From NCBI GenBank assembly GCA_026391855.1, contig JAPLDE010000028.1:297-64296 (forward strand): a stretch of 64,000 nucleotides of DNA, given 5' to 3'. The first letter of the stretch is position 1; every line of letters starts with the position of its first letter. The translations under genes were made by a program, and so were the position numbers. The notes beneath the pieces were generated by a model. It was not told the origin of the DNA and made no database searches. It saw only the letters and a list, made by a program, of their open reading frames with translations. This DNA is from Bacteroidota bacterium (GTDB taxonomy: Bacteria > Bacteroidota > Bacteroidia > Bacteroidales > CAIXZF01). This document shows, piece after piece, positions 10,145 through 24,612 of this stretch.

Positions 10145-10298
10145 ACTGCCGACTGCCAACTGCAGACTGCCGACTGCCAACTGCAGACTGCCGACTGCCG
10201 ACTGCCGACTGCCAACTGCCAACTGCCAACTGCCAACTGCCAACTGCCAACTGCAAACTGCAAACTGCCAACTGCCGACTGCCGACTGCCAACTGCTA
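10145..10298. repeat. Tandem array of 22 heptamers, consensus ACTGC(C/A)(A/G)
   Basis: Counted unit by unit: ACTGCCG, ACTGCCA, ACTGCAG, ACTGCAA variants, ending ACTGCTA. There are no spacers between units. Confidence 0.97.
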
Positions 10299-10299
10299 T

Positions 10300-10329
10300 T
10301 TTGCATTGTCCAAAACTTTACTATCTTTG
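10300..10329 (+). promoter_or_regulatory. Bacteroidota -33/-7 promoter for tRNA-Leu
   Basis: TTTG (10300-10303), 18-nt spacer, then TATCTTTG (10322-10329), 7 nt before the tRNA. Confidence 0.7.
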
Positions 10330-10336
10330 CCCGCCC

Positions 10337-10420
10337 GCCCGGATGGCGGAATAGGTAGACGCGTTGGTCTCAAAAACCAATGAGCGAAAGCTCGTGCCGG
10401 TTCGATCCCGGCTCCGGGTA
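10337..10420 (+). tRNA. trnL-CAA: tRNA-Leu (anticodon CAA)
   Basis: Acceptor stem GCCCGGA/TCCGGGT, D-loop GGCGGAATAGGTAGACGC, anticodon arm TTGGT-CTCAAAA-ACCAA, long variable arm, T-loop GGTTCGATCCC. CCA is not encoded. Confidence 0.97.
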
Positions 10421-10424
10421 CCCT

Positions 10425-10471
10425 AACCCCCTCTTAACTATGTTGAAAAACAATCAGTTAGAGGGGTTTTT
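10425..10471 (+). terminator. Probable intrinsic terminator after tRNA-Leu
   Basis: Imperfect stem AACCCCCTCTTAACT / AGTTAGAGGGGTT followed by a T-run. Confidence 0.55.
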
Positions 10472-10844
10472 CATTTATCGGGCTCCTTTCAGGGTCCTCT
10501 AAAATAATTATAAAGTTGACCTAAGGTGCTGATTAAAAATACAATATGTGAATATTTTTCAAAAACTTAATACAAAGCGGATAGTTTTAGTTATTGATTT
10601 TCAGTAAGTTAATAAAATAGCAAGTAATAAGTGAGTATGCATTGAAGTTGGAAACAAAAAAAAATAAGTATGATATTCGCAATGTGATCTATTTTGTTAT
10701 AAATTTAGTGCCTCTTGAAGCTGAAGTTGCCTGCTTTGTGTCACCAATAATGGAATACTGCATTCCTTTAACCTGAACTGCTGCAGCACAGATAGTCTGA
10801 AATTTCAGTTTGAATATGGGTTTATCTAATAAATGGAGGTATTT

Positions 10845-11387
10845 ATGAAAGATGAAACATGCACACATTCCTGGGAAATGATGAATGTTCAGCCTGGTTT
10901 TATCATTACAGAGAACTGTTTTCGTTGCGATATGATTTCTACCTACTTTTCGCTGGAGGAACGGCCTCCACTGGAAGAATACAGAGAAGGTGATCATTTC
11001 TGGAATGTAATGGGAAGTGCGCAATCGATACGTTTCGATCTGAAATGCAGCAAATGTTCATATTTAATGACATTTGAAGAATTATGCGGTCTGATGATGT
11101 GTACCGGATGCGATGAAAAGTGTAAGATCTATAAACTTATGAAGGAATATGAGAAAGAACGAACATGGGTATACGTCGCTTTTGGTTATCTCCCGATTGA
11201 AGGCAGAAAAAAGCTAAGCCCTGAAAAGATTCTTGCTCTTGAACAATATTTCAATCAGCGGCGTAAATCTTCAACGTCAAAAATTAAGATTGTTTCCGAT
11301 GAACTTGTTGACAATATCAGGAATTGTTACGCAGAATTAATCAGGGACATCGATATGATTTCTTTGAAACCACCTGAAAATAAATAG
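10845..11387 (+). CDS. Cys-rich hypothetical protein, putative metal/Fe-S binding
   Basis: First gene of a tightly packed operon, with GGAGGT SD. Ten Cys including CxxC, CxxC and CxxCxxxC. Confidence 0.75.
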   Translation: MKDETCTHSWEMMNVQPGFIITENCFRCDMISTYFSLEERPPLEEYREGDHFWNVMGSAQSIRFDLKCSKCSYLMTFEELCGLMMCTGCDEKCKIYKLMKEYEKERTWVYVAFGYLPIEGRKKLSPEKILALEQYFNQRRKSSTSKIKIVSDELVDNIRNCYAELIRDIDMISLKPPENK

Positions 11388-11422
11388 ATTACAATAATTA
11401 ACCTTAATAGAGGAGAATTGCT

Positions 11423-11752
11423 ATGAAGCTTCAAGAAGTTATTGACAAACTCTCATTAAAAGCACTTACTGATGTGGAAGACAGAAATGTATCCGGAGTA
11501 CATATCTCTGACATGTTATCAGAAGTGATGAGCAGTGCGCAAAGTGAAAATCTGTGGTTAACCATTCAAACCCACAAAAACATTGTCTCGGCAGCTAACC
11601 TGATCGATATATCAGCAGTTATTGTTACTAATGGCAAGATAGTTCCGGAAGATACAATTGAATTGGCAAACCGTTACCATGTTAATATTTTGAGCTATCC
11701 GGAACCGGCTTTCAAACTGGTTAGCAAGTTGATTGAAGCAGGTATTCAATAA
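11423..11752 (+). CDS. Stand-alone DRTGG domain protein (HPr-kinase N-terminal-like)
   Basis: SDMLSEVM, LWLTIQTHKNIVSAA, AVIVTNGK. Confidence 0.85.
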   Translation: MKLQEVIDKLSLKALTDVEDRNVSGVHISDMLSEVMSSAQSENLWLTIQTHKNIVSAANLIDISAVIVTNGKIVPEDTIELANRYHVNILSYPEPAFKLVSKLIEAGIQ

Positions 11753-11767
11753 GAAGGAGCCTGCCCA

Positions 11768-12589
11768 ATGCTGGTTCAAACAACTCATAATATTGATATA
11801 GAGAAGATTGGGAAGTCGTTACAGGCAAATTTTATCGTTGGTCAACGTGATGATGCTCAATATACTTCAGGAATTTATGCTTCCGACCTGATGAGTGATG
11901 TACTTGCTTATGGTAAACCGGGTTCTGTTTTGTTGACCGGACTTAATACTATACAGGCGGTAATTTCTGCCTATATGGCTGAATTCAGGGGAATTATATT
12001 CCTAAGGAGTAAGGTGCCTGATGATGATATGATTGCCTTTGCCCGTGAAAAGGGATTGGTGGTTCTGACAACTGAAGAAGACATGTATGAAGCATGTGTG
12101 GAAATCGCCAATATTGAGTGTGAAGTAGCTGATATTAAAGATATTCATAAACCGGCAAAAAAAGTTGAGAATATTGCCACTTATAATTTTCATATCGATG
12201 GACATGACTTTGCCAGTGCGGGATTAGTATCGACACATATAAAAACGATCCTTAAATCAATCGGATATAATCCTTTGCTTATCAGAAGAGTTGCTATCTC
12301 AACCTACGAAGCTGAAATGAATGTGGTTATGCATGCAAAGAAGGCAGATGTCATGCTTACAACCTCAGAAAAAGAAATTCAGGTACTTATCCGTGATGAA
12401 GGAAAAGGCATTGAAGATATAGAATTAGCGATGAAGGAAGGATACTCCACTGCCACTGATGAACAGCGTGCAATGGGATTCGGAGCCGGAATGGGTTTGC
12501 CGAATATAAAAAGAAATACTGATAATCTGCAAATCGAAAGTCAAGTCGGGAAGGGAACTACTATTAACGCTGTTTTTTATGTGAAATGA
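11768..12589 (+). CDS. DRTGG domain fused to RsbT/RsbW-like anti-sigma Ser/Thr kinase (HATPase_c)
   Basis: N-terminal ASDLMSDVLA...LLTGL. C-terminal YEAEMNVVMHA (N box), DEGKGIEDIELAMKEGYST, GFGAGMGLPNIK, GKGT. Confidence 0.88.
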   Translation: MLVQTTHNIDIEKIGKSLQANFIVGQRDDAQYTSGIYASDLMSDVLAYGKPGSVLLTGLNTIQAVISAYMAEFRGIIFLRSKVPDDDMIAFAREKGLVVLTTEEDMYEACVEIANIECEVADIKDIHKPAKKVENIATYNFHIDGHDFASAGLVSTHIKTILKSIGYNPLLIRRVAISTYEAEMNVVMHAKKADVMLTTSEKEIQVLIRDEGKGIEDIELAMKEGYSTATDEQRAMGFGAGMGLPNIKRNTDNLQIESQVGKGTTINAVFYVK

Positions 12590-13860
12590 AATTTTATCAT
12601 TCACACCTTATATTGCACGAGAAATGTGCCGGGAGGACATTATGTATTAAAGCCTGTCCTACCCAGTCATTGAGATATAGAGACAATAAAATCCTGTTTT
12701 ATGACGACCTCTGTGTGGATTGCGGGGAGTGTATAAATGCCTGCCCGGAGGGTGTTTTTGTTCCTGTCATCGATGAAGTCAGTGATTTTGATAAGTTTAC
12801 GTTTAAAATTGCTGTCCCTTCCCGTGTATTTTATACTCAGTTCAGTGCCGATATACATCCAAAATTGATTCATCAGGCGCTAAAAAATATTGGATTTGAC
12901 GCTGTTGCAAACATCTCACAGGAAAGTCATGAACTTAGTTATGTCATTTCCGAGTATTTGAAGGTAAAAAAAGACGGTAAACCTATTATAGGGTCATTTT
13001 GCCCGGCAGTTATCCGGCTGATACTGGTAAATTATCCCAACCTGGTAGAATTAATCTCACCTTTCGATGTACCACTGGAATTAGCAGCAAAGAAATCGAA
13101 ATTAAGATATTCTAAGGAACTGGGAATCGACATTAAAAAGATAGGCGCCATTTATATCACTCCTTGTCCGGCCAAAGCTGTGTCCATCGCTCAACCGGCA
13201 GAAAAGGAAAAATCCTGGATTGACGGCACAATCTCTATTAAAGATATTTATAATATCATTCTTCCGGAAATACTCAGAATGCATGAAAATAATAAACAGG
13301 AAAGAGTGGAAGATTATTTCTATTACGGGAAAGGATGGGGTATCTTAAGTCATATATTACAGCACCTTGACTCAGAAAGATTTATGACAGTTAAAGGGAT
13401 TGATAATGTTAAGATGATCCTTAATGACATCGAAGACTCAAAATTAAAAAATGTGGACTATATTGAGGCGTTCACCTGTAATCAGGCTTGCATAGGCGGT
13501 GCATTTTGTGTTGAAAATCCCTATATTTCAAGGCATAATTCTATTCTTCTGGAAAAGAGATTTTGTGAACCTGGTGCTTTTAATCAGGATGAAATTATGA
13601 AAAAGCACCAGGAGAATTACTATTTTATGGAACACCATGTTGTTCCAAGAACTACTCGTGCTGCAACATCCAACCTTGCCATTTCCATTAAAAGAATGAA
13701 TCAGAAAGAGAGGATTCTTTCAAAATTACCAAAAAAGGATTGTGGATTATGCGGAGCGCCCACCTGTGAAACCTTCGCTCAGGATTGTGCCTGGGGTGAA
13801 GCTGATCTCACAGATTGTATCTTTTTTAGACAAATTTCTTCATTTAAGGATAATAAATAA
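12586..13860 (+). CDS. [FeFe]-hydrogenase large-subunit-like (Fe_hyd_lg_C) protein with N-terminal ferredoxin and C-terminal FeS domain; non-catalytic/sensory type
   Basis: Ferredoxin motifs CxxxxxCxxxCP and CVDCGEC. H-cluster-like motifs GSFCPAV, TPCPAK and EAFTCNQACIGG. C-terminal CGLCGAPTC...C. Confidence 0.85.
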   Translation: MKFYHSHLILHEKCAGRTLCIKACPTQSLRYRDNKILFYDDLCVDCGECINACPEGVFVPVIDEVSDFDKFTFKIAVPSRVFYTQFSADIHPKLIHQALKNIGFDAVANISQESHELSYVISEYLKVKKDGKPIIGSFCPAVIRLILVNYPNLVELISPFDVPLELAAKKSKLRYSKELGIDIKKIGAIYITPCPAKAVSIAQPAEKEKSWIDGTISIKDIYNIILPEILRMHENNKQERVEDYFYYGKGWGILSHILQHLDSERFMTVKGIDNVKMILNDIEDSKLKNVDYIEAFTCNQACIGGAFCVENPYISRHNSILLEKRFCEPGAFNQDEIMKKHQENYYFMEHHVVPRTTRAATSNLAISIKRMNQKERILSKLPKKDCGLCGAPTCETFAQDCAWGEADLTDCIFFRQISSFKDNK

Positions 13861-14318
13861 TGAAAAAAGCTGAAACATCCTTCTCAGAACTGCTTCAGTC
13901 ATTTCCGCCGGAAGAAGGAAGTATTATTCCCTTGCTTCAAAACGCTCAGGCAAGACTGGGATATATTCCAGAAGAAGCAGTAGAAGTTATTGCAGATTAC
14001 CTAAAACTAACTGAAAGTCAAATATTTGGAGTTGCATCCTTTTATTCTCAATTTCGTTTTACTGAACCTGGAAGACATTCTATTAGTGTATGCCTCGGAA
14101 CAGCCTGTCATGTGAATGGTGGCGCTACATTATTAGAAACCACTGAGAGAGAACTGAATGTCAAACCTGGTGAATGTACGGCCGACAAAAGATTTGACCT
14201 GAACCGTGTTGCCTGCCTGGGCTGTTGTGCCTTAGCCCCTGTTGTAAAAATCGACGGCGAGATTCACAGTAAGGTCAATGTTATCAACCTCAAGGAGATG
14301 TGGAATCACTATGATTAA
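13860..14318 (+). CDS. NuoE/HydC (BfuC)-like [2Fe-2S] subunit
   Basis: GVASFYSQF, VCLGTACH, VACLGCCALAPV. Confidence 0.92.
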   Translation: MKKAETSFSELLQSFPPEEGSIIPLLQNAQARLGYIPEEAVEVIADYLKLTESQIFGVASFYSQFRFTEPGRHSISVCLGTACHVNGGATLLETTERELNVKPGECTADKRFDLNRVACLGCCALAPVVKIDGEIHSKVNVINLKEMWNHYD

Positions 14319-16179
14319 TATTACGACATTACAAAAGAAAAGCCTTATTGAATGGGAGGCGTTAACCCATTCAAACGAACCAGTCATATACCTGGGCATG
14401 GCATCCTGTGGTAAAGCAGCGGGTGCCGAAAAAGTTAAGCAGGTAATTCTGGAGTCCCTCAAGGTTCACAGTATCAATGCAAAACTGATAGAGGTAGGCT
14501 GTGTGGGAACCTGTTACCTGGAACCTATTATGGATATCAGAGCTTTTGGCTGGCCACGTATCTCATATGGCAATGTGGATGAAAAAAGAGCAGAATACAT
14601 CATCCAAAAACACCTGGTCGAACGGAATCTTTCCAAAACCAAACCCCTTGGATATCTGGGCAATGTTCCTTTTGATAATATTCCCCCTTTCTCTGAACAG
14701 CCGATGCTGAAACCTCAGGTTCGTATTGTAACGAGAAACTGTGGGATTATTGATCCGGAAAATATTCATCACTACCTGGCAAATGAAGGTTATTCAGGTA
14801 TTGCGAAAGCACTGAAGATGACCCCGTTAGAAGTCATAGAGGAGATTACTTCTGCAGGACTCAGGGGGCGTGGAGGTGCAGGGTTTCTGACCGGAAGGAA
14901 ATGGCGTACATGCTATGATACCCAATCTGATGTTAAGTATTTGATTTGTAACGCTGATGAAGGTGACCCCGGAGCTTTTATGAACCGCCTTCTGATCGAA
15001 AGCGATCCTCATGCCGTGCTGGAAGGGATGCTGATAGCTGCCTATGCTATTGGTGCTACCCTGGGATATATTTATATCCGTGCCGAATACCCGCTGGCAA
15101 TCAAACGATTGCAAAATGCAATTGAGCAGATGCATAAATATGGACTACTGGGAGATAACATTCTTGGTTCAACGTTTTCCTTCTCATTAAAAATCAAGGA
15201 AGGAGCTGGTGCCTTTGTTTGTGGAGAAGAAACCGCACTGATTCATTCTATAGAAGGAAAAAGAGGAATGCCACGGACCAGACCACCTTTCCCCGCCGTC
15301 TCAGGTTTACATCAGAAGCCTACTGTCATTAATAATGTTGAAACCCTTGGGACTGTGGCTCAAATTATCAGAAACGGAGCTCAATGGTATCGCCAATATG
15401 GGATCGAAGGCAATTATGGGACCAAAACCTTTTCACTGGTAGGCAAGGTGAGAAGGTCGGGATTAATAGAGGTTCCCCTGGGAACACCGCTTCGCAAAAT
15501 TATTTTCGATATTGGCGGTGGTACCGTGAAACCCTTTAAAGCGGTACAAACAGGAGGCCCCTCCGGAGGATGTATCCCGCTGGAACTCCTTGATACTCCG
15601 GTTACTTATGAAACACTTGCCTCTATTGGATCCATTATGGGTTCAGGAGGACTGATTGTAATGGACCAGGACACATGCGTGGTAGATGTGGCAAGATATT
15701 TCCTGGATTTCATCCAGAAAGAATCTTGTGGAAAATGTACTCCATGCAGGGTTGGAACAAGGCATATGGTTGAAATACTTGAGAATATCTGCCATGGTGA
15801 AGCCAGTGCAGATCAGTTGGACAACCTGGAAACCCTGGCAAAACTGGTTCAGTCAACCTCATTATGTCAGCTGGGACAAACCGCTCCAAACCCTGTTCTT
15901 ACCACTTTGCGCTATTTCCGGTCGGAATATGTTCAACACATCAATGAATATTACTGTCCGGCCCTGGTTTGTAGCTCTCTTATCGAATATACGGTAATTA
16001 AGGAGAAATGTACCGGGTGCCAGAGATGCGTGAGTGTTTGTCCTACTGAGGCTATTACAGGTCCAAGGTCTGAGCCTCATAACCTCGATCCTTCAAAATG
16101 TATTAAGTGCCGGTCATGTTATGAAATATGCCGTTTCGACGCCATTGCAGGTAACGCTATTGTCATCACCTCGAAATAG
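14311..16179 (+). CDS. NuoF/HydB (BfuB)-like FMN/NADH-binding subunit with N-terminal thioredoxin-like [2Fe-2S] domain and C-terminal 2x[4Fe-4S]
   Basis: GLRGRGGAGF, NADEGDPG, GAFVCGEETAL, ESCGKCTPCR, SLCQLG, HINEYYCPALVC, two ferredoxin motifs. Start placed at ATG 14311. Confidence 0.93.
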   Translation: MINITTLQKKSLIEWEALTHSNEPVIYLGMASCGKAAGAEKVKQVILESLKVHSINAKLIEVGCVGTCYLEPIMDIRAFGWPRISYGNVDEKRAEYIIQKHLVERNLSKTKPLGYLGNVPFDNIPPFSEQPMLKPQVRIVTRNCGIIDPENIHHYLANEGYSGIAKALKMTPLEVIEEITSAGLRGRGGAGFLTGRKWRTCYDTQSDVKYLICNADEGDPGAFMNRLLIESDPHAVLEGMLIAAYAIGATLGYIYIRAEYPLAIKRLQNAIEQMHKYGLLGDNILGSTFSFSLKIKEGAGAFVCGEETALIHSIEGKRGMPRTRPPFPAVSGLHQKPTVINNVETLGTVAQIIRNGAQWYRQYGIEGNYGTKTFSLVGKVRRSGLIEVPLGTPLRKIIFDIGGGTVKPFKAVQTGGPSGGCIPLELLDTPVTYETLASIGSIMGSGGLIVMDQDTCVVDVARYFLDFIQKESCGKCTPCRVGTRHMVEILENICHGEASADQLDNLETLAKLVQSTSLCQLGQTAPNPVLTTLRYFRSEYVQHINEYYCPALVCSSLIEYTVIKEKCTGCQRCVSVCPTEAITGPRSEPHNLDPSKCIKCRSCYEICRFDAIAGNAIVITSK

Positions 16180-16184
16180 GAAGA

Positions 16185-18509
16185 ATGAACCTTACTATTA
16201 ATAACAGAACCATTCAGATCGAAAAAGCGGTCACGGTTCTAGAAGCCGCAGAAAAGAACGATATCTACATTCCCAAAATGTGTGCACATCCGGAACTAAC
16301 TCCATATGGAGGCTGCCGGTTATGTATTGTGGAAATTGACGGAAGGAGAGGATATCCGACTGCCTGTACTACAATGGCTGAAGAAGGAATGACGGTCAGA
16401 ACAGACACGAAAATCCTTCGCGAGATGCGGGAGAACCTGCTTCAGTTGATTCTCAGCGAACATCCTTCAGCTTGTCTTTTATGTGAAGATATTGATGGGT
16501 GCAAAGAGTTTCAGAGTACCATCAGGAAGGTAGGTATTACCACCGGTTGCCGATGGTGTCCCAAGGACAGGGACTGTGAATTGCAAAAGATAGTAGAAAG
16601 TTTTAACATTCATCAGCTTACACTGCCCGGACTGTACAGGGATTTACCTATTGAAAAGTATGATCCCTTTTTCGACAGGGATTATAATCTTTGTATTTAT
16701 TGTGGCCGTTGTGTGAGGATATGCAGTGAATACCGGAAAAGCTCAGTACTGGCACTAAAACAGAGAGGGAAGCAAACCACGATTGGTCCTGCTTTCACTG
16801 ACAATCATACGGACGCCGGCTGTGAATACTGTGGAGCTTGTGTTTCAGTTTGCCCAACAGGTGCTATGTCAGAAAAAAGCCGAAAGTGGTGGGGTGTTCC
16901 GGAATCCTATGTGCAATCTGTTTGCCCTTTATGTAGCCTGAACTGTGAAATACAGGTTCTTACAGCTAAAAATAAAATTGTCGGCACTTTACCCCCGGGG
17001 TTACCCCATGAGTCTGCCGGGGATTTGTGTGTAAAAGGACGGTTTTGTCTGAGTGAACTTGTGAACCGAACGGAAAGAATACTGGAACCAATATATCTTT
17101 TTCCGGAAGGTAACGGTATTGTTGTATGGGATCAGGCTATTGATAAAGCGGAATTAATATTGAGCAACATTCAGACGGAAAGAACAGCGGTCTTTCTTTC
17201 ACCTGATTTATCGACGGAAGAATATGAGGCTGTCCGGTTATTTTCGGAAAAAGTGCTGAAGACCAGTGAAATCACTTCGTCATGTTTTGATAGCAATCTG
17301 ATTGCATTCTCACGGATGGCCATGAAATCTGCATCCATTGAAACAGTTAAGGATGCCGGGGTGATTCTTTCCTTTTTTCTGAATGGCAATTACAATTATG
17401 GTCCTCTTACCCTGGCCATTAAAACAGCTTCAGATAATGGGGTTCCATACTACCAGACAGGTTGGATCAAAGACACTACTTCCCGCTTCGCCAGGCATAG
17501 GTTTGTTCCTGTTCCGGGGGAAGAAGTATCGATTCTTGATGAAATACTGAAATGTCTTAAAGATGGAAAAACCAACAAACCCGAAATCCTTGAACTCTCA
17601 GATTATCTTATAAAAGCAGGAAAAGGAATAATAGTAGCCGGACCTGAAATGATGTCACTGAGCAATTGTCAGCTGTTACTCGAAAAAATTGAAACCCTGG
17701 CAATTATCACCAAATCTCAGATTTTCATGCCCTTACCTTATGGAAATCTCAAAGGAATGCTTTCTGTTATTCAACTTAAACCTTTTGAAGACGTTCTTAA
17801 TAAAGTTGAAAAAGGTAAATTTGATTTGCTTTATTTTATCGGAGATGCACCTTTCTCATCAAGACCAGAGGTAAAATATATACTTTACCAGAATTCATTC
17901 CCTGCACCTGAAGGACTAAACCCTGATCTTGTCTTACCTGCCGCACTTTGGGGCGAGACCGGAGGTACCTGGGCTGGATCAAATGGTCATTCCCAGCCTG
18001 TTGTAGCTGCAGCTCTTCCTCATAATTATGCCCTCTCACACCAGGAAATATTGATCAAACTGGCAGAAAAAATGCAGAATAAAGAGTTTGTAACTGATGC
18101 TAAAAACCTTATTAGCGGGAGTTTAAAAGCAAAAAAGCCAATGCTTCCGGCTTTAAAAGAGGTTCAGAAAATCACTGTTCCATCGAAACCTGATCCTGAT
18201 TTTCCCTATGTGCTGGTTGAGGAAATATCACCCCATCGTTATCACAACCTGAACCTCAGTAAAGGGATCAGCGGTTTCGGAGAACTGGTCAGAACAGATC
18301 AACTGATGATGAATCCGTCAGATGCGCGAAAACTTAAGATTAAAGACGGGGACTCCGTCGAAGTCGTTAATAAAAAGATAATAAAGACACTTCCTGTCAC
18401 TATCAGGAAAAACATAACTGAAGGATTTATCCATCTGAACACTTCAAACGGAATGAGGGGATTTGATTGCAATCCCTGTTACGTAGATATAAGGAGGGTC
18501 CATGTTTAA
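16185..18509 (+). CDS. NuoG/FdhA-like Fe-S subunit with degenerate molybdopterin-oxidoreductase domain
   Basis: [2Fe-2S] C..GGCRLC..TAC, His-ligated cluster HPSAC, 2x[4Fe-4S], CPLCSLNC...LCVKG, C-terminal Molydop_binding-like domain. No RxC/UH catalytic motif and no H-cluster. Confidence 0.85.
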   Translation: MNLTINNRTIQIEKAVTVLEAAEKNDIYIPKMCAHPELTPYGGCRLCIVEIDGRRGYPTACTTMAEEGMTVRTDTKILREMRENLLQLILSEHPSACLLCEDIDGCKEFQSTIRKVGITTGCRWCPKDRDCELQKIVESFNIHQLTLPGLYRDLPIEKYDPFFDRDYNLCIYCGRCVRICSEYRKSSVLALKQRGKQTTIGPAFTDNHTDAGCEYCGACVSVCPTGAMSEKSRKWWGVPESYVQSVCPLCSLNCEIQVLTAKNKIVGTLPPGLPHESAGDLCVKGRFCLSELVNRTERILEPIYLFPEGNGIVVWDQAIDKAELILSNIQTERTAVFLSPDLSTEEYEAVRLFSEKVLKTSEITSSCFDSNLIAFSRMAMKSASIETVKDAGVILSFFLNGNYNYGPLTLAIKTASDNGVPYYQTGWIKDTTSRFARHRFVPVPGEEVSILDEILKCLKDGKTNKPEILELSDYLIKAGKGIIVAGPEMMSLSNCQLLLEKIETLAIITKSQIFMPLPYGNLKGMLSVIQLKPFEDVLNKVEKGKFDLLYFIGDAPFSSRPEVKYILYQNSFPAPEGLNPDLVLPAALWGETGGTWAGSNGHSQPVVAAALPHNYALSHQEILIKLAEKMQNKEFVTDAKNLISGSLKAKKPMLPALKEVQKITVPSKPDPDFPYVLVEEISPHRYHNLNLSKGISGFGELVRTDQLMMNPSDARKLKIKDGDSVEVVNKKIIKTLPVTIRKNITEGFIHLNTSNGMRGFDCNPCYVDIRRVHV

Positions 18510-19290
18510 AATCGTTGAGCGAAAAATGATCGTCCCAAATTTGCACCTTCTTGTAGTGCATGCACCTGAAGTAGCCAATACGATACGACCAGGGCAGTTT
18601 GTTATACTTCATGCAGGGGAAGGTGCAGAAAGAATACCTCTTACTGCAGCCGATTGGGACAGAGAGGAAGGTACACTAACAGTCATTTTTATGGAAGTGG
18701 GTACTTCCACCGGGAAGCTGGCGATGCTAAAGGCTGGTGACCAGATACCTACAGTTGTTGGTCCGTTAGGTGTACCAATGGAAATGAGGAATTTCGGTAC
18801 GGTAGTATGCATTGGCGGCTGTTTTGGCATGGGTTCCATTTTGCCTGTTGTCAGAGAATTAAAGGAAAATGGGAATAAAGTAATTACCATACTTGAAGGC
18901 AGGAGCAAAAATCTTTTATACTGGGAAGAGAAGTTGTCAAAATACAGCGACAAGGTGATCAGGTTAACCAGAGACGGAAGCACAGGCTACAAGGGTCATG
19001 TTAAGAAGGGCAATGAAATCCTTAAGGAGATGAATATCATTCCCGACCGGATTATCGCTATGGGTTGTACAACCTTATCTTATCTGGCTACAAGGGATTA
19101 CGCTCATTATAATGTACCCATAATCATTACCCTCAACACCATTATGATTGATGGAACCGGTATGTGTGGTGTTTGCCGGTGCACTATCGACGGGCACATG
19201 AAATTTGCCTGTGTTGATGGCCCGACATCATTCCGGATGTGGAGGATTTTAACATGGAAGAAACAAAATCAAGGAAACGTGAGAGGGTAG
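18502..19290 (+). CDS. nfnA: NfnA/SudB (ferredoxin:NADP+ oxidoreductase small subunit); C-terminus disrupted by an apparent deletion at ~19225
   Basis: PGQFVI, ERIPLT, GPLG, DGTGMCGVCRC...CVDGP. The expected EFD continuation is missing, and HHSGCGGF-stop appears in another frame (19226-19252). Confidence 0.85.
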   Translation: MFKIVERKMIVPNLHLLVVHAPEVANTIRPGQFVILHAGEGAERIPLTAADWDREEGTLTVIFMEVGTSTGKLAMLKAGDQIPTVVGPLGVPMEMRNFGTVVCIGGCFGMGSILPVVRELKENGNKVITILEGRSKNLLYWEEKLSKYSDKVIRLTRDGSTGYKGHVKKGNEILKEMNIIPDRIIAMGCTTLSYLATRDYAHYNVPIIITLNTIMIDGTGMCGVCRCTIDGHMKFACVDGPTSFRMWRILTWKKQNQGNVRG

Positions 19291-20672
19291 AAATGCCCAA
19301 ACAGGCACCTTTCATCAGGAAAAGAAATTTTCAAGAGGTTGCACTGGGATATACAAAGGAAATGGCAGTAGATGAAGCCAGCCGCTGCCTTGCCTGTAAA
19401 AAACCGCTTTGTGTGGAAGGCTGTCCTGTGGAAATCGATATTCCGGGTTTCATTAAATGTATAGCCACCAATGATTTTTCAGCTGCCATAAGGAAGCTGA
19501 AAGAAAAAAATTGTTTACCGGCAGTTTGCGGCAGAGTATGTCCACAGGAAGAACAATGTGAAATAAAATGCATAGTTGGGAAAAAAGGATCTCCTGTCGC
19601 TATTGGTCGCCTCGAACGTTTTGCCGCTGAATGGGAAGCTTCTCAAACAATAATGGAATTACCTGAAATAAAAACGAAAACGGGTAAAAATGTACTGGTT
19701 GTCGGTTCAGGCCCTGCGGGTATTACTGTTGCCGGCGACCTGATCCTTGCGGGACATGAGGTGACCATGCTCGAAGCACTTCATGAACCCGGCGGAGTCC
19801 TTTCCTATGGGATCCCAGAATTCCGCCTTCCCGGCAAAATTGTCAGCAGGGAGATTGAATATCTTCAAAAACTCGGAGTAAAGCTTATCTGTAACTATGT
19901 TGTAGGTAAAACCAAATCTTTGTCTGATCTTTTAAATGAGTATGATGCTGCTTTCATCGGCACAGGTGCAGGTCTTCCGTGGTTTATGGAAATACCGGGA
20001 GAAAATCTGAACGGAGTATATTCCGCCAATGAATATCTTACCCGCGTTAACTTAATGAGAGGATATCAGTATCCTAAAACTTATACGCCGGTTATCCGAC
20101 ATCGGAGAGTGGCAGTAGTGGGTGGTGGAAATGTTGCCATGGATTGCGCCCGGACTGCACTTCGTTTAGGTGCTGAAGAGGTTTATATTGTATACAGAAG
20201 ATCCCGGAATGAACTGCCCGCCAGGCTTGAGGAGTTCGAAAATGCCGAAGAAGAGGGAGTGATCTTCCATTTTCTTACGCTGCCTGTAAAATTAATTGGA
20301 GATGAAGAGGGCTGGCTTAAAGAAATTGAATGCCTGAAAATGGAGCTTGGAGAACCGGATCAATCCGGGAGAAGAAAACCGGTTCCATTGGCAGGTTCAG
20401 AATTCAGAATGAGGATGGATGCTTGTATTGTTGCTATCGGTAACAGTCCTAATCCTATTATCCCCACTACAACTCCCAATCTGGAGGTTTCAAAAAAAGG
20501 TACCATTATCGTTGATGAAAATACAGGTAAAACCTCTATCGACCGCGTGTGGGCAGGGGGCGATATTGTTACCGGAGCTGCAACAGTGATTCTGGCGATG
20601 GGTGCCGGTCGTAAAGCTGCACGGTCGATGCACGCCTATTTAACCAATGGTATTGTTTCAACAGGAGGCTAA
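19254..20672 (+). CDS. nfnB: NfnB/SudA large subunit (GltD-like; often annotated gltA, NADPH-dependent glutamate synthase)
   Basis: RCLACKKPLCVEGCP, CGRVCPQEEQCE, VGSGPAG, VVGGGNVAMDCAR, YRR, AGGDIVTGAATVILAM. Start placed at ATG 19254. Confidence 0.9.
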   Translation: MEETKSRKRERVEMPKQAPFIRKRNFQEVALGYTKEMAVDEASRCLACKKPLCVEGCPVEIDIPGFIKCIATNDFSAAIRKLKEKNCLPAVCGRVCPQEEQCEIKCIVGKKGSPVAIGRLERFAAEWEASQTIMELPEIKTKTGKNVLVVGSGPAGITVAGDLILAGHEVTMLEALHEPGGVLSYGIPEFRLPGKIVSREIEYLQKLGVKLICNYVVGKTKSLSDLLNEYDAAFIGTGAGLPWFMEIPGENLNGVYSANEYLTRVNLMRGYQYPKTYTPVIRHRRVAVVGGGNVAMDCARTALRLGAEEVYIVYRRSRNELPARLEEFENAEEEGVIFHFLTLPVKLIGDEEGWLKEIECLKMELGEPDQSGRRKPVPLAGSEFRMRMDACIVAIGNSPNPIIPTTTPNLEVSKKGTIIVDENTGKTSIDRVWAGGDIVTGAATVILAMGAGRKAARSMHAYLTNGIVSTGG

Positions 20673-20889
20673 GTCCGGTCAAAAGGAAAGCATTATCAGA
20701 GCCGAACAAGTTGAGGCGGAAAATGACATTACAAGGTTATCCTGACTGATGGGATTTCTGTTGATATTTTGTGGCTTATGGCGCATCGACACAGAAAAAA
20801 ATATCAGAGAAGCCAGATATGATGTTAACCAGACATGGTATTAAAGAAGTTGGCGGATTTATCTGCCAGCTTAATCCAATTAACCGATA

Positions 20890-21354
20890 TCAATCCTTTT
20901 CGTCTTCACCCTTCTTTTGCAGTGTTTTCTTCAACACCTCACCAGTTGTGGAGAACTGAACTTCATACCTTTCCTTACCTTTTTTCAGGTCCATTTCATA
21001 AATAGTCCCTTTGTCGGGGGTTTCAACTTTGGCTACTTCAGAAGTCTTAAACCCGGCGAAGTTTTTGGCTACGGAGGCGGTAATTTCTTTGGGCAGCGCG
21101 GATTCTTTTATCTCAGTCTCCGTTTCTAACCACTTTCCTGTAGCGTCAAAGTTGGCTGACATCTCTACTCCCTTATCCTTGAAGTTGATCTCATAATCCT
21201 TCTTTTCCATCTCATATTTAATGTTGGTAGCAGCAGGAAACTTTTTGGCAAAGGCTTGTTTTACAGGAGCAGGTACTTTATCTGCGGTGATTTTCTGGGT
21301 AAATCCCCCAAAACTGATCAGCAAAATGGTGGTCAACAAAATTAAATTTTTCAT
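20890..21354 (-). CDS. PepSY-like (beta-lactamase-inhibitor-like) periplasmic protein
   Basis: Signal peptide followed by VPAPVKQAFAKKFP...YEINF...ANFDATGKWLETE repeats. Confidence 0.85.
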   Translation of the reverse strand: MKNLILLTTILLISFGGFTQKITADKVPAPVKQAFAKKFPAATNIKYEMEKKDYEINFKDKGVEMSANFDATGKWLETETEIKESALPKEITASVAKNFAGFKTSEVAKVETPDKGTIYEMDLKKGKERYEVQFSTTGEVLKKTLQKKGEDEKD

Positions 21355-21702
21355 TTTTTCAGATTTAAAATATTGAAAGTTAATAAATTACATCTTATTT
21401 CCACACTGAATATCTCCGGAGGGTAATACAAAAGATCAGGATCAGTTGAGGTGTAGTTATCAGCACCCGCAAAATGCAGAGGTTTAAGAATACGGAAAGC
21501 ACCATGGTCATGGATCAAAGGTAGTTAAAATATTGGTCATGAGTAAAAACAGGCCGGAACATGGCAACAGGTTATCTTTTGGATTATTTAATGAGCTGTT
21601 ATCAGTGCCGGTTCAGCTATTCTTTTTACTTTCGAAGGCTGAAATTCTGACAGCCATGGGGCTTAAAAGCCTTAAGATCTTGTATGATAATGGAATAAAA
21701 CG

Positions 21703-22806: not shown

Positions 22807-24612
22807 TTAATTTCTGGCGGTATTTTGGGTGTGTGAAACAAAAGAACTCGTGTGTTCATTCATTTCCATGATCGTACCGGTAATGGCTTTCATGCTCTCG
22901 CTGACCTCCATGCTCAGTTTTTCTGCATCGTAAAATTGCGTGGAGGCACTATTAATTTTTATGTTGATCTGTTTAAAGAGCATCGCAATGGTTTCCAGAT
23001 AAGGTTTGATCTTATCGGCTTCATTATGTGAATTCTCGGCTAATCGTTTTACCTCGCTGGCCACTACTGCAAAACCACGGCCATGCTCACCGGCCCGGGC
23101 AGCTTCAATGGCAGCATTCAGGGCAAGCAGATTGGTTTGCTTGGCAATGGTGCTGATGGTTTCTATTATCTTGGTGAATTCACCAAGCATATCGGATTTA
23201 GAATTTACAGATTCCAGCAATCCCAGGAATTCAGCATTTAATTTGTTGGTAAGTGTATGCATTTTATCAATAAACACACTTATGGTAAAACTCTGTGTAT
23301 CAAGCTGTTCCGCTGTTACGGAAACATTACCCGCAAGTTCACCAACAATGGTGGCATTATAATAAAAGCAATTTTCTTTCTTGTTCAGTCCGTTATGAAT
23401 GGCAGTTGCCATATGGTCGCAGGAATTATATCCACAGGAAGCACAATTCAAAAAATCTGATGGCTTGATTTTTTTCATGCTGAGATAAATACTCTGTCTT
23501 TCTCTTTCGGTAGGTTCAATAACTACATTATTTTCAGATAGATCCGAATATTCTCTTTTATATAGTTCAGGAGCCCAGTAATGGTCCAGTATGCGGTTTA
23601 CCTTTTTCTTATTTGAGTACTGCTTTTGCGCCAGTTTATTACGTTTTTCAACGAAATATTCTATTTTATCGATGGGTTCCTCCAGGTTCAGCGTGCCAGG
23701 CCCGCCATTACATCCTTTATGACAATTCAGGCAATCGATCAGAACAGGCGCTCTTCCGTGAGAAATTTCTTCCGGTAAAGAAGTGAAATAATCATAAACA
23801 TATTCTTTACCTTCAATTTTCCTGGAAATTTTAGCGATATCCGGAACCTCTCTTTCAGCAGTTCTCAAAAGGCCTCCGGGCAAAGAAAACAAAACAGCCC
23901 TTTCGGCAGGCGGGTTATCATAATCCGTTTCGGCATATTTATTCAGATCAATCTCGTTTTCATCGATAAATTGCTTCAGGGACCTGATAGTGACATTATA
24001 ATCTCCGAGGCCAACTTCATCAAATTCTCGGCGCTTTGCCACACAGGGCGAGATGACGGCAATTTTATGCTGACGGTATTGCGGATAAAACTGTTTTATC
24101 ATTTTCATCGTGTGCATCATCGGGCTATCAGCAGGGGCAAGATATTTAAGCAGGGACGGACGATAAATTTCAAGGTAGGTGACAATGGCCGGACAGGGTT
24201 GTGAAATGATGGCTCTTGGTTTATTGTCGTGTAAATGAGCAAGATATGATTTGATGGTAAGTTCGGCGCCAAAACTAACGTCAAAATTTGCCTCCACACC
24301 CATACTTTTCAGCAGGCCATTTATACGAAGATACTGTTCGGGAAAGTTGGATGCGATAGCCGGAGCCACTATAGCGATCATTTTTACCCCGTTTCCCAAG
24401 TTCTCGAGAAATGTCTCCGTATCGTCCAGGTAATAGCGGGCTTCGTGGGTACAAACTGCGATGCAGGCGCCACAGGCTATACACATATCATTGTTTACCT
24501 GCACATAATCACCGCTGCCGTTGTTACAGTATTTTATCGGGCAGGCAGCAATGCATTTATGGCAATTAACGCATTTTTCTTTATCGACTTCTAAAACATG
24601 ACTTAATTTCAT
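22807..24612 (-). CDS. Cytoplasmic [FeFe]-hydrogenase-like sensor fused to methyl-accepting chemotaxis signalling domain (group C-type)
   Basis: 2x[4Fe-4S], [29 protein letters not shown], FeS domain [12 protein letters not shown] hairpin [30 protein letters not shown]. No transmembrane segment seen. Confidence 0.9.

Follow-up and report, generated by a model that had tools for sequence, protein, structure and literature searches.

Which process does a hydrogenase-like sensor serve when the genes behind it encode an enzyme that is not a hydrogenase? This question is raised by an operon of a Bacteroidota bacterium (Bacteroidales, CAIXZF01; GenBank assembly GCA_026391855.1, contig JAPLDE010000028.1), from which we analyzed a stretch of 64,000 nucleotides (positions 297 to 64,296 of the contig, forward strand; hereafter the window, whose own numbering is used below). 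Nine genes on its + strand span positions 10833–20672. The first four, which we call the cassette, encode a cysteine (Cys)-rich protein, a DRTGG protein, a DRTGG-kinase fusion and a homolog of group D (M2e) [FeFe]-hydrogenases; the other five encode the subunits of a NuoE/NuoF-type oxidoreductase. Our preferred answer, held with about even confidence, is that the cassette is a four-protein iron–sulfur (Fe-S) redox-sensing system that controls its co-inherited enzyme post-translationally. The operon and the tRNA gene next to it are as follows.

10337–10422, + strand: tRNA-Leu(CAA), found by ARAGORN just 5' of the operon; possible edge of an acquired block
10833–11387, + strand: Cys-rich protein (cys184), cassette gene 1, of no known family or fold; the probable database start at 10845 gives 180 amino acids
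11423–11752, + strand: single-domain DRTGG-superfamily protein, 109 amino acids (Pfam, phmmer, BLASTP)
11768–12589, + strand: DRTGG domain (residues ~1–118) joined to a SpoIIAB/RsbW-type GHKL Ser/Thr kinase domain (~137–273), 273 amino acids (Pfam, NCBIfam, fold match)
12586–13860, + strand: group D (M2e)/HydDB-C1-like hydrogenase homolog, 424 amino acids; its start overlaps the kinase stop by 4 nucleotides
13860–14318, + strand: NuoE/BfuC-like [2Fe-2S] subunit (PF01257, E 5.7e-44); its start overlaps the homolog stop by 1 nucleotide
14278–16179, + strand: NuoF/BfuB-like FMN/NAD(H) subunit with a C-terminal 2x[4Fe-4S] domain and a Cys-bearing N-terminal extension
16185–18509, + strand: BfuA/NuoG-like Fe-S subunit with a degenerate molybdopterin-type domain, 774 amino acids
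18502–19290, + strand: NfnA/SudB-like FAD/[2Fe-2S] subunit (NF004862, E 7.9e-87), overlapping the preceding gene by 8 nucleotides
19239–20672, + strand: NfnB/GltD-like NADPH/FAD/2x[4Fe-4S] subunit (TIGR01316, E 5.7e-180)

These genes are tightly packed: three junctions have gaps of 35, 15 and 5 nucleotides, the remaining five overlap, and Shine-Dalgarno-like GGAG motifs precede most starts. An earlier note, made from the sequence alone, had described a signaling-type module of three genes at 11423–13860. All three proteins are encoded there on the + strand and their assignment to signaling is supported, but the conserved fourth member of the block, the Cys-rich gene at 10833–11387, had been left out. 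The note's statement that the block lacks a phosphatase, a STAS protein and a sigma factor was borne out, as Pfam detected none of these domains in 10833–20672 or in the flanking genes. Pfam also found no DNA-binding domain among the proteins of the nine-gene unit, either here or in three further contexts with Pfam calls. A promoter and terminator scan of 10200–21500 gave no more sites than shuffled sequence. Two starts probably need correction to fit ortholog lengths better: the NuoF-like open reading frame is likely to begin at ATG 14311, which has AGGAG upstream, rather than at 14278, and the NfnB-like one at ATG 19293, 3 nucleotides past the nfnA stop, rather than at 19239.

We then analyzed the distribution of this arrangement. 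In a scan of one genome per species, 571 genomes were found to encode a relative of the hydrogenase homolog. The 80 closest loci, located with an alignment of nine homolog sequences, were probed by tblastn with the nine window proteins plus a true HydA H-domain from the same genome. The complete nine-gene unit was present in 37 of the 80 loci. Counting only loci of sufficient length, 50 of 68 contain the three upstream cassette genes and 40 of 54 contain the five enzyme genes, and an identical gene order was observed in three additional metagenome contigs with independent gene calls and Pfam annotation. Because this order recurs across dozens of genomes, the arrangement of the cassette is far beyond chance. 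The host labels cover about ten phyla and include Bacteroidota, Chlorobiota, Aminicenantes/Acidobacteriota, Zixibacteria, Calditrichota, Ignavibacteria, Latescibacterota, Krumholzibacteriota, Myxococcales and Desulfuromonadaceae.

Apart from the homolog itself, no prototypical hydrogenase H-domain was detected in any of the 80 loci, and therefore the cassette accompanies non-hydrogenase NuoE/NuoF-type enzymes among its nearest relatives. A survey of what follows the module in other genomes had been proposed in the earlier note. Its suggestion that the module had been "repurposed" here does not hold as a local novelty, since the nine-gene block is old and widely spread. Neither the 80 loci nor the three Pfam-annotated contigs contained a STAS, sigma-factor or PP2C gene linked to the cassette.

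A second, more distant class of loci has a "classical" order and a homolog 38–41% identical to that of the window. For example, the genes of a Chlorobiaceae metagenome-assembled genome (MAG; locus L094) encode, in order, DRTGG, HATPase_c_2, the homolog, DRTGG, PHP, HATPase_c, NuoE, a 2Fe-2S protein, NuoF, BfuA without an H-domain and then MvhD. Longer relatives of the homolog were found to be gene fusions: four carry a C-terminal DRTGG domain (P0130, P0175, P0219 and P0235), two an N-terminal DRTGG domain (P0134 and P0198) and one an N-terminal HATPase_c_2 domain (P0178). Together with the DRTGG-kinase protein of the window, all three possible pairings thus occur on single polypeptides, which is good evidence that the homolog, DRTGG and kinase would act as one complex. 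In several loci (L047, L078, L049/L050 and L079/L081) the cassette lies apart from the enzyme genes or on their opposite side.

Two variants of the operon were also noticed. In the Aminicenantes loci L017 (11315–20032) and L018, NuoF is fused to a GltD-type domain (1031 amino acids) and an extra 2Fe-2S thioredoxin-like protein is inserted, with NfnA- and NfnB-like genes still downstream. A Desulfuromonadaceae MAG (L043, 2188–8150) contains tandem cassettes: the fused type comes first (Cys-rich protein, DRTGG, DRTGG-kinase, homolog) and, after a NuoE-like gene, is followed by the split type (DRTGG, kinase, a second homolog at 37% identity, DRTGG).

The 424-amino-acid homolog matches Fe_hyd_lg_C (PF02906, E 1.7e-26), a Fer4 dicluster and, at its C-terminus, PF04060 (E 1.4e-10); no PAS domain was matched in Pfam. 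Motif L1 reads G-S-F138-C139-P, with Phe replacing the proton-transfer Cys (C299 position). L2 is T192-P-C194-P-A-K197-A-V-S200, in which S200 takes the place of the Glu E361, and L3 is E-A-F296-T-C298-N-Q-A-C302. The earlier reading of these motifs (cluster Cys kept, Phe in GSFCP, L2 Glu missing) was thus correct. Multiple alignment of 44 diverse relatives revealed that the four H-cluster Cys (C139, C194, C298 and C302, corresponding to C300, C355, C499 and C503 of CpI) are invariant, as are those of the C-terminal cluster motif C386-x2-C389-x4-C394-x16-C411. The positions of the [2Fe] pocket vary among the relatives: residues such as F, Y, H or D occupy the C299 position, S, T or A the M353 position, and residues such as F, L, M or H the M497 position. 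The M353 position of the window protein is T192, a hallmark of group D by the criterion of Land et al. (PMC8163306), and nearly all group D (M2e) hallmarks listed by these authors are present. The Lys equivalent to K358 is kept in the window copy (K197) and is replaced by Met or Leu in 16 of the 81 family sequences, mostly of the Bacteroidota clade.

The second ferredoxin motif of the homolog, CxxCxxCxxxCP, is complete. The first (12625–12660) is C14-x5-C20-x3-C24-P, in which Arg17 replaces the second Cys. Nearly all orthologs have R, H, K, N, T, S or D there, and those of 21 of the 30 maturase-less genomes described below have His. Such a pattern suggests a His-ligated or [3Fe-4S] cluster at the electron entry point of the protein.

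A second hydrogenase-like protein (601 amino acids) is encoded on the minus strand at 22807–24612, ~2 kb downstream of the operon. It contains a Fer4 dicluster, PF02906 (E 3.5e-31), PF04060 and a C-terminal MCP signaling domain (E 1.9e-30), and its domain content is that of the "chemotactic" group C2-type architecture. The fusion of this paralogous architecture to an MCP domain supports a role of the Fer4/H-domain/PF04060 unit in sensory input.

The free DRTGG protein scores above the Pfam cut-off for Hpr_kinase_N (26.8 bits) and just under that for DRTGG (22.1 bits; cut-off 25.2); the score of the L094 ortholog is 34 bits. The window protein aligns with the DRTGG portion of the Clostridium perfringens CBS-pyrophosphatase 3L2B (phmmer E 0.007) and is paralogous to the N-terminal half of the kinase fusion (BLASTP E 3e-6). 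The fusion itself has Pfam scores of 29.6 bits for DRTGG, 33.8 for HATPase_c and 28.7 for HATPase_c_2, and matches NCBIfam spIIAB (E 4.9e-15). Its AlphaFold model (predicted local distance difference test, pLDDT, 83) has two domains separated by a disordered linker (residues 120–134). In this model the C-terminal half superposes on SpoIIAB (1TIL/1L0O) and RsbW (6M36) with a template modeling (TM) score of 0.85 and a root-mean-square deviation of ~2 Å, and the N-terminal half on the DRTGG protein AF1212 (2IOJ; TM 0.77).

Highly conserved motifs were observed in both proteins. The N-box (E181/E183/N185/H189), the G1 box (D210-x-G212-x-G214) and the G2 box (G237-F-G239-x-G241-M-G243) of the kinase are invariant in 42 orthologs, so that ATP binding is almost certainly retained, as judged from these residues. 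The motif S29-D30-x2-S33-D34-V35 is conserved in the free DRTGG protein, and S-D-x-x-S-D-V also occurs in the DRTGG domain of the kinase; located at a strand-to-helix junction, it is, by analogy alone, a candidate phospho-site (S29/S33 of the free protein, S39/S43 of the kinase fusion).

No Pfam or NCBIfam family was matched by the Cys-rich protein. Its conserved residues are C10, H12, C29, C32, C72, C75, C90, C93, C97 and C165, and these nine Cys and one His suggest two metal or Fe-S sites. The AlphaFold model is confident (pLDDT 82; predicted TM score 0.78), and a Foldseek search of PDB with it returned no significant neighbor (best E 0.1, TM <0.3). Matches to the MCM N-terminal, Tudor and NusG folds were rejected as noise (E >=0.1, TM <0.3). 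The family comprises 569 database clusters, all annotated as "hypothetical" and none with a Pfam domain; in the 80-locus survey it was present solely in loci with this operon type.

With regard to the enzyme, the earlier claim that it is not a hydrogenase was supported: Pfam detected no hydrogenase H-domain in the 774-amino-acid subunit. The best solved relatives of this subunit are FdsA, for the N-terminal part only, and the NiFe-Bfu HydA of A. mobile. Formate dehydrogenase was considered as a third activity and, on limited analysis, rejected, as there was no PF00384 match at E up to 0.001, the alignment to FdsA covers only the N-terminal Fe-S part, and no Cys/Sec-His catalytic motif was seen in the subunit. 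Pfam and NCBIfam searches identified the three components that characterize the Bfu family (PMC9304861), namely BfuC (NuoE-like), BfuB (NuoF-like, with an extra C-terminal 2x[4Fe-4S] domain) and a BfuA-type subunit; the N-terminal Cys pattern of the 633-amino-acid NuoF-like protein was read from the sequence. Based on subunit homology, the enzyme is likely to be NAD(P)H/ferredoxin transhydrogenase-like and putatively bifurcating.

Known Bfu enzymes (Nfn-Bfu/StnABC and NiFe-Bfu; PMC9304861, PMC10482914, PMC11829005) share with it the BfuC, BfuB and BfuA-like subunits and a GltD/NfnB-type NADPH-binding module. In Stn/Nfn-Bfu, however, GltD is fused into BfuA, whereas the window encodes separate NfnA- and NfnB-like subunits, giving a five-subunit layout, and its BfuA, unlike that of Stn/Nfn-Bfu, keeps a NuoG-like degenerate molybdopterin domain. 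No description of a NuoEFG enzyme with separate NfnAB subunits was found in the literature searched, including Schut et al. (2022; PMC9304861).

A check for the HydEFG maturases elsewhere in the source genome, which the earlier note had proposed, found all three above curated cut-offs, together with six other PF02906 proteins. Among 47 operon-bearing genomes, however, HydG was above cut-off in 16 and HydF in 15, and 30 had neither. In 29 of these 30, the sole PF02906 matches were of the homolog's own type (E 1e-23 to 1e-31). HydG was also lacking in 18 of 20 further genomes with related cassette classes and present in two. Maturases occur where a prototypical HydA (E <1e-80) is also present, and therefore they follow the host's own hydrogenases and not the operon. 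This pattern cannot be explained by MAG incompleteness. The inference from it is strong but not absolute, because active hydrogenases have been reported from maturase-less archaea (PMC11216029). Similar doubt about "C1" hydrogenases with degenerate motifs has been voiced previously (PMC11406978).

In the mechanism we propose, the cassette would be co-transcribed, translationally coupled and co-inherited with the Bfu-type NuoE/NuoF/NuoG-like plus NfnA/NfnB-like oxidoreductase. The homolog would be an Fe-S redox sensor, acting through its ferredoxin-like domain, the [4Fe-4S] cubane of its H-domain and the C-terminal Cx2Cx4Cx16C cluster, with no general need for the [2Fe] subcluster, and would join the DRTGG proteins and the kinase. 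The kinase may act in a partner-switch-like manner, with DRTGG substituting for the usual STAS partner, and the NuoE/NuoF core of the enzyme would be the site of control; the signal sensed, the phospho-acceptor and this output target are what we infer. Because no DNA-binding, STAS, sigma-factor or phosphatase gene travels with the cassette, the output is probably post-translational. Direct phosphorylation of the enzyme, as suggested in the earlier note, and sensing of nucleotides or ApnA by DRTGG are conjectural. More tentatively, and with somewhat less than even confidence, we propose that an H-cluster-independent Fe-S switch, made of the homolog, two DRTGG domains, the kinase and the Cys-rich protein, post-translationally controls the NuoE/NuoF bifurcating core of a five-subunit NuoEFG-NfnAB enzyme not described before and moves between phyla with its target.

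Several observations weigh against redox sensing with post-translational control. The tight translational coupling of the homolog with nuoE would also fit a structural subunit, and the Cys-rich protein, whose fold is unmatched, could be a DNA-binding output. The genomes reached through the loci are MAGs of unknown completeness, and active [FeFe]-hydrogenases have been reported in eukaryotes as well as archaea without maturases (PMC11216029). The source genome has HydE, HydF and HydG, its copy of the homolog keeps the K358-equivalent Lys, and TamHydS, a characterized group D protein, binds a functional H-cluster in vitro (PMC8163306). In addition, no experimental work on the cassette kinase, the DRTGG proteins or their output was found in the papers searched.

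Some of these observations would favor a genuine H2 sensor, in which the homolog receives its [2Fe] subcluster from HydEFG and senses H2 partial pressure like TamHydS/TmHydS, so that the kinase adjusts the NADPH/NADH/ferredoxin enzyme when H2 disposal by HydABC is unfavorable. We consider this unlikely for the source organism, and H2 sensing is unlikely in general because 30 of the 47 operon-bearing genomes lack both HydG and HydF. Besides the maturases, the four H-cluster Cys, the retained Lys, the Thr at the M353 position and the working H-cluster of TamHydS (PMC8163306), this explanation could draw on the Bacteroidota clade of the window copy, which is mostly maturase-positive. In the homolog tree, these maturase-positive copies form one clade beside maturase-negative Aminicenantes copies, and class II loci gave no clean outgroup. 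It could also draw on a Bacteroidales MAG (G004, locus L024), which has HydG and HydF and yet the operon homolog as its only PF02906 protein; either the assembly lacks the HydA of this MAG, or the sensor-type protein is the client of the maturases here. On the other hand, the distribution of maturases tracks prototypical HydA, in nearly all of the maturase-less genomes the homolog is the only protein with a hydrogenase fold, 10 of 16 maturase-positive orthologs carry Met or Leu in place of the K358-equivalent Lys, and the first ferredoxin motif lacks its second Cys.

It is also improbable, in our view, that the homolog is an extra electron-transfer subunit of the NuoEFG-NfnAB complex, serving as an H-cluster-less Fe-S "wire" or ferredoxin-docking module, with the kinase, DRTGG and Cys-rich proteins involved in assembly or stability or regulating secondarily. 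The 1-nucleotide overlap with nuoE, a gene order fixed in all complete operons, conservation limited to the cluster ligands and the lack of maturases in most hosts would all agree with such a role, and the Bfu literature treats the sensory-type hydrogenase as a possible "T" subunit (PMC11406978). However, the fusion partners of the homolog are DRTGG and the GHKL kinase and not NuoE, NuoF or NuoG, a matching architecture is fused to an MCP output in the window itself, and the cassette is separate from or opposite the enzyme genes in the loci mentioned above. Moreover, purified HydABC and NiFe-HydABCSL holoenzymes did not contain the products of neighboring kinase-type genes (PMC9304861).

A classical partner-switching kinase with an unlinked STAS substrate (RsbS/RsbV/SpoIIAA-like) and a transcriptional output through a sigma factor elsewhere is very improbable. 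In its favor, SpoIIAB and RsbW are the closest matches to the kinase domain, and the source genome encodes STAS proteins, one of them (C5:30419–30745) an apparent orphan next to an ECF-sigma-like cluster of genes, as well as three PP2C/SpoIIE phosphatases (only at C65, C51 and C136). However, linkage of a STAS, sigma-factor or PP2C gene to the operon was seen in none of the genomes examined, the best STAS protein (C229) adjoins its own RsbW-like kinase, the one PP2C gene in the vicinity of a hydrogenase (C136) is part of another locus, of HydABC/group C type, and the absence of the operon from same-genus relatives makes a host-encoded partner unlikely. A cognate RsbS/anti-sigma substrate elsewhere had been named in the earlier note as evidence that would refute the note's own reading; STAS proteins do exist in the genome, and the link to the operon is what is missing.

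We also examined the genomic background of the operon. The source genome has no paralogs of the cassette proteins, and elsewhere it has three further hydrogenase loci and two additional Nfn-type enzymes. Two of the loci are HydABC-like (C214). Flanking the HydABC-type locus at C136:683–9831 are genes for two longer HydS-like proteins (628 and 663 amino acids) and a PP2C/SpoIIE phosphatase, so the true hydrogenase at this locus has its own, different sensor set. Three NADPH/NADH/ferredoxin-type systems appear to be encoded in the genome: a canonical NfnAB (C105:42195–44842), a Stn-like locus with a fused BfuA-GltD (1234 amino acids) and NuoF (C130:4023–8686), and the window operon (C59).

Three genomes of the same genus and three others of the same family lack the fused kinase, as do 399 of the 400 genomes sampled from the phylum; six matches to it within the order are of the split, distant type. 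The GC (guanine plus cytosine) content is 0.38 in the cassette and 0.52 in the adjacent prs gene. Because of the adjoining tRNA-Leu, the drop in GC content and the patchy distribution, the whole operon looks to have been horizontally acquired as a block in this genome. No att-like direct repeats of the 3' half of the tRNA-Leu were found downstream.

The cassette type has precedents in the literature. TamHydS of Thermoanaerobacter mathranii is a group D (M2e) putative sensory [FeFe]-hydrogenase (Land et al. 2020; PMC8163306). In the HydDB-based annotations given in two papers (PMC6163223, PMC11406978), group D is listed as "group C1, histidine-kinase-linked"; the C1/C2/C3 names are used here as they appear in papers that cite the hydrogenase classification. 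Cassettes of this type have been noted beside HydABC (PMC8163306) and once beside Rnf (PMC6163223), in support of the earlier statement that similar modules lie upstream of bifurcating [FeFe]-hydrogenases.

The window homolog shares with TamHydS and group D an N-terminal ferredoxin-like domain, an H-domain with four cluster Cys, the loss of C299, a hydroxyl residue at M353, the exact Cx2Cx4Cx16C motif, the absence of PAS and a neighboring kinase-like ATPase. In contrast to group D (M2e), its downstream enzyme has no H-cluster subunit and is not a trimeric bifurcating [FeFe]-hydrogenase. It differs from TamHydS in the altered first ferredoxin motif, in the variable K358 position among orthologs and in that most operon-bearing genomes lack HydG/HydF and any other hydrogenase. 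Compared with the TamHydS neighborhood, the operon has a kinase fused to DRTGG and an extra Cys-rich protein, and lacks the AraC regulator, the PHP protein and the second GHKL ATPase.

The classical HydABC-type cassette, as in L094, likewise places DRTGG, a SpoIIAB-type GHKL kinase and a group D-like homolog upstream of NuoE/NuoF. It differs from the window cassette in having a PHP phosphoesterase and a second GHKL ATPase, in lacking the DRTGG-kinase fusion and the Cys-rich protein, and in its lower homolog identity (see above). The SpoIIAB/SpoIIAA, RsbW/RsbV and RsbT/RsbS modules resemble the cassette in kinase fold, in the N, G1 and G2 boxes and in having a small alpha/beta partner adjoining the kinase. 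In the cassette, however, this partner is DRTGG and not STAS, sigma factor and PP2C phosphatase are lacking, an Fe-S sensor protein is attached and the operon encodes a metabolic enzyme.

The eukaryotic hydrogenase-like Fe-S proteins Nar1/NARF keep the cubane Cys and work without a [2Fe] subcluster or maturases. They belong to a different lineage, with other domain additions and a role in cytosolic Fe-S assembly, and offer only a functional analogy to the homolog.

Among the papers searched, we found none linking DRTGG to hydrogenase operons and none characterizing this arrangement of cassette and enzyme. The cassette type is already recognized in annotation, and the maturase-free context, the fusions, the Cys-rich member and the five-subunit partner enzyme are additions to it.

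These results bear on how sensory [FeFe]-hydrogenases relay their signal, as the operon names candidate partners, and natural fusions exist for each pair among the homolog, DRTGG and the GHKL kinase. They also indicate that the cassette belongs to NuoE/NuoF-type bifurcating enzymes generally and not to hydrogenases. In the maturase-free hosts, nature provides cases where a hydrogenase fold, if it functions, has to do so without the [2Fe] subcluster, and the compact nine-gene unit could be expressed whole to test whether electron bifurcation is controlled post-translationally. Surveys of metagenomes that take group C/D hydrogenase genes as a sign of H2 sensing or metabolism would be affected. 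If the H-cluster-independent switch is true, many catalogued "sensory [FeFe]-hydrogenases" (group D/C1) would not be hydrogen sensors.

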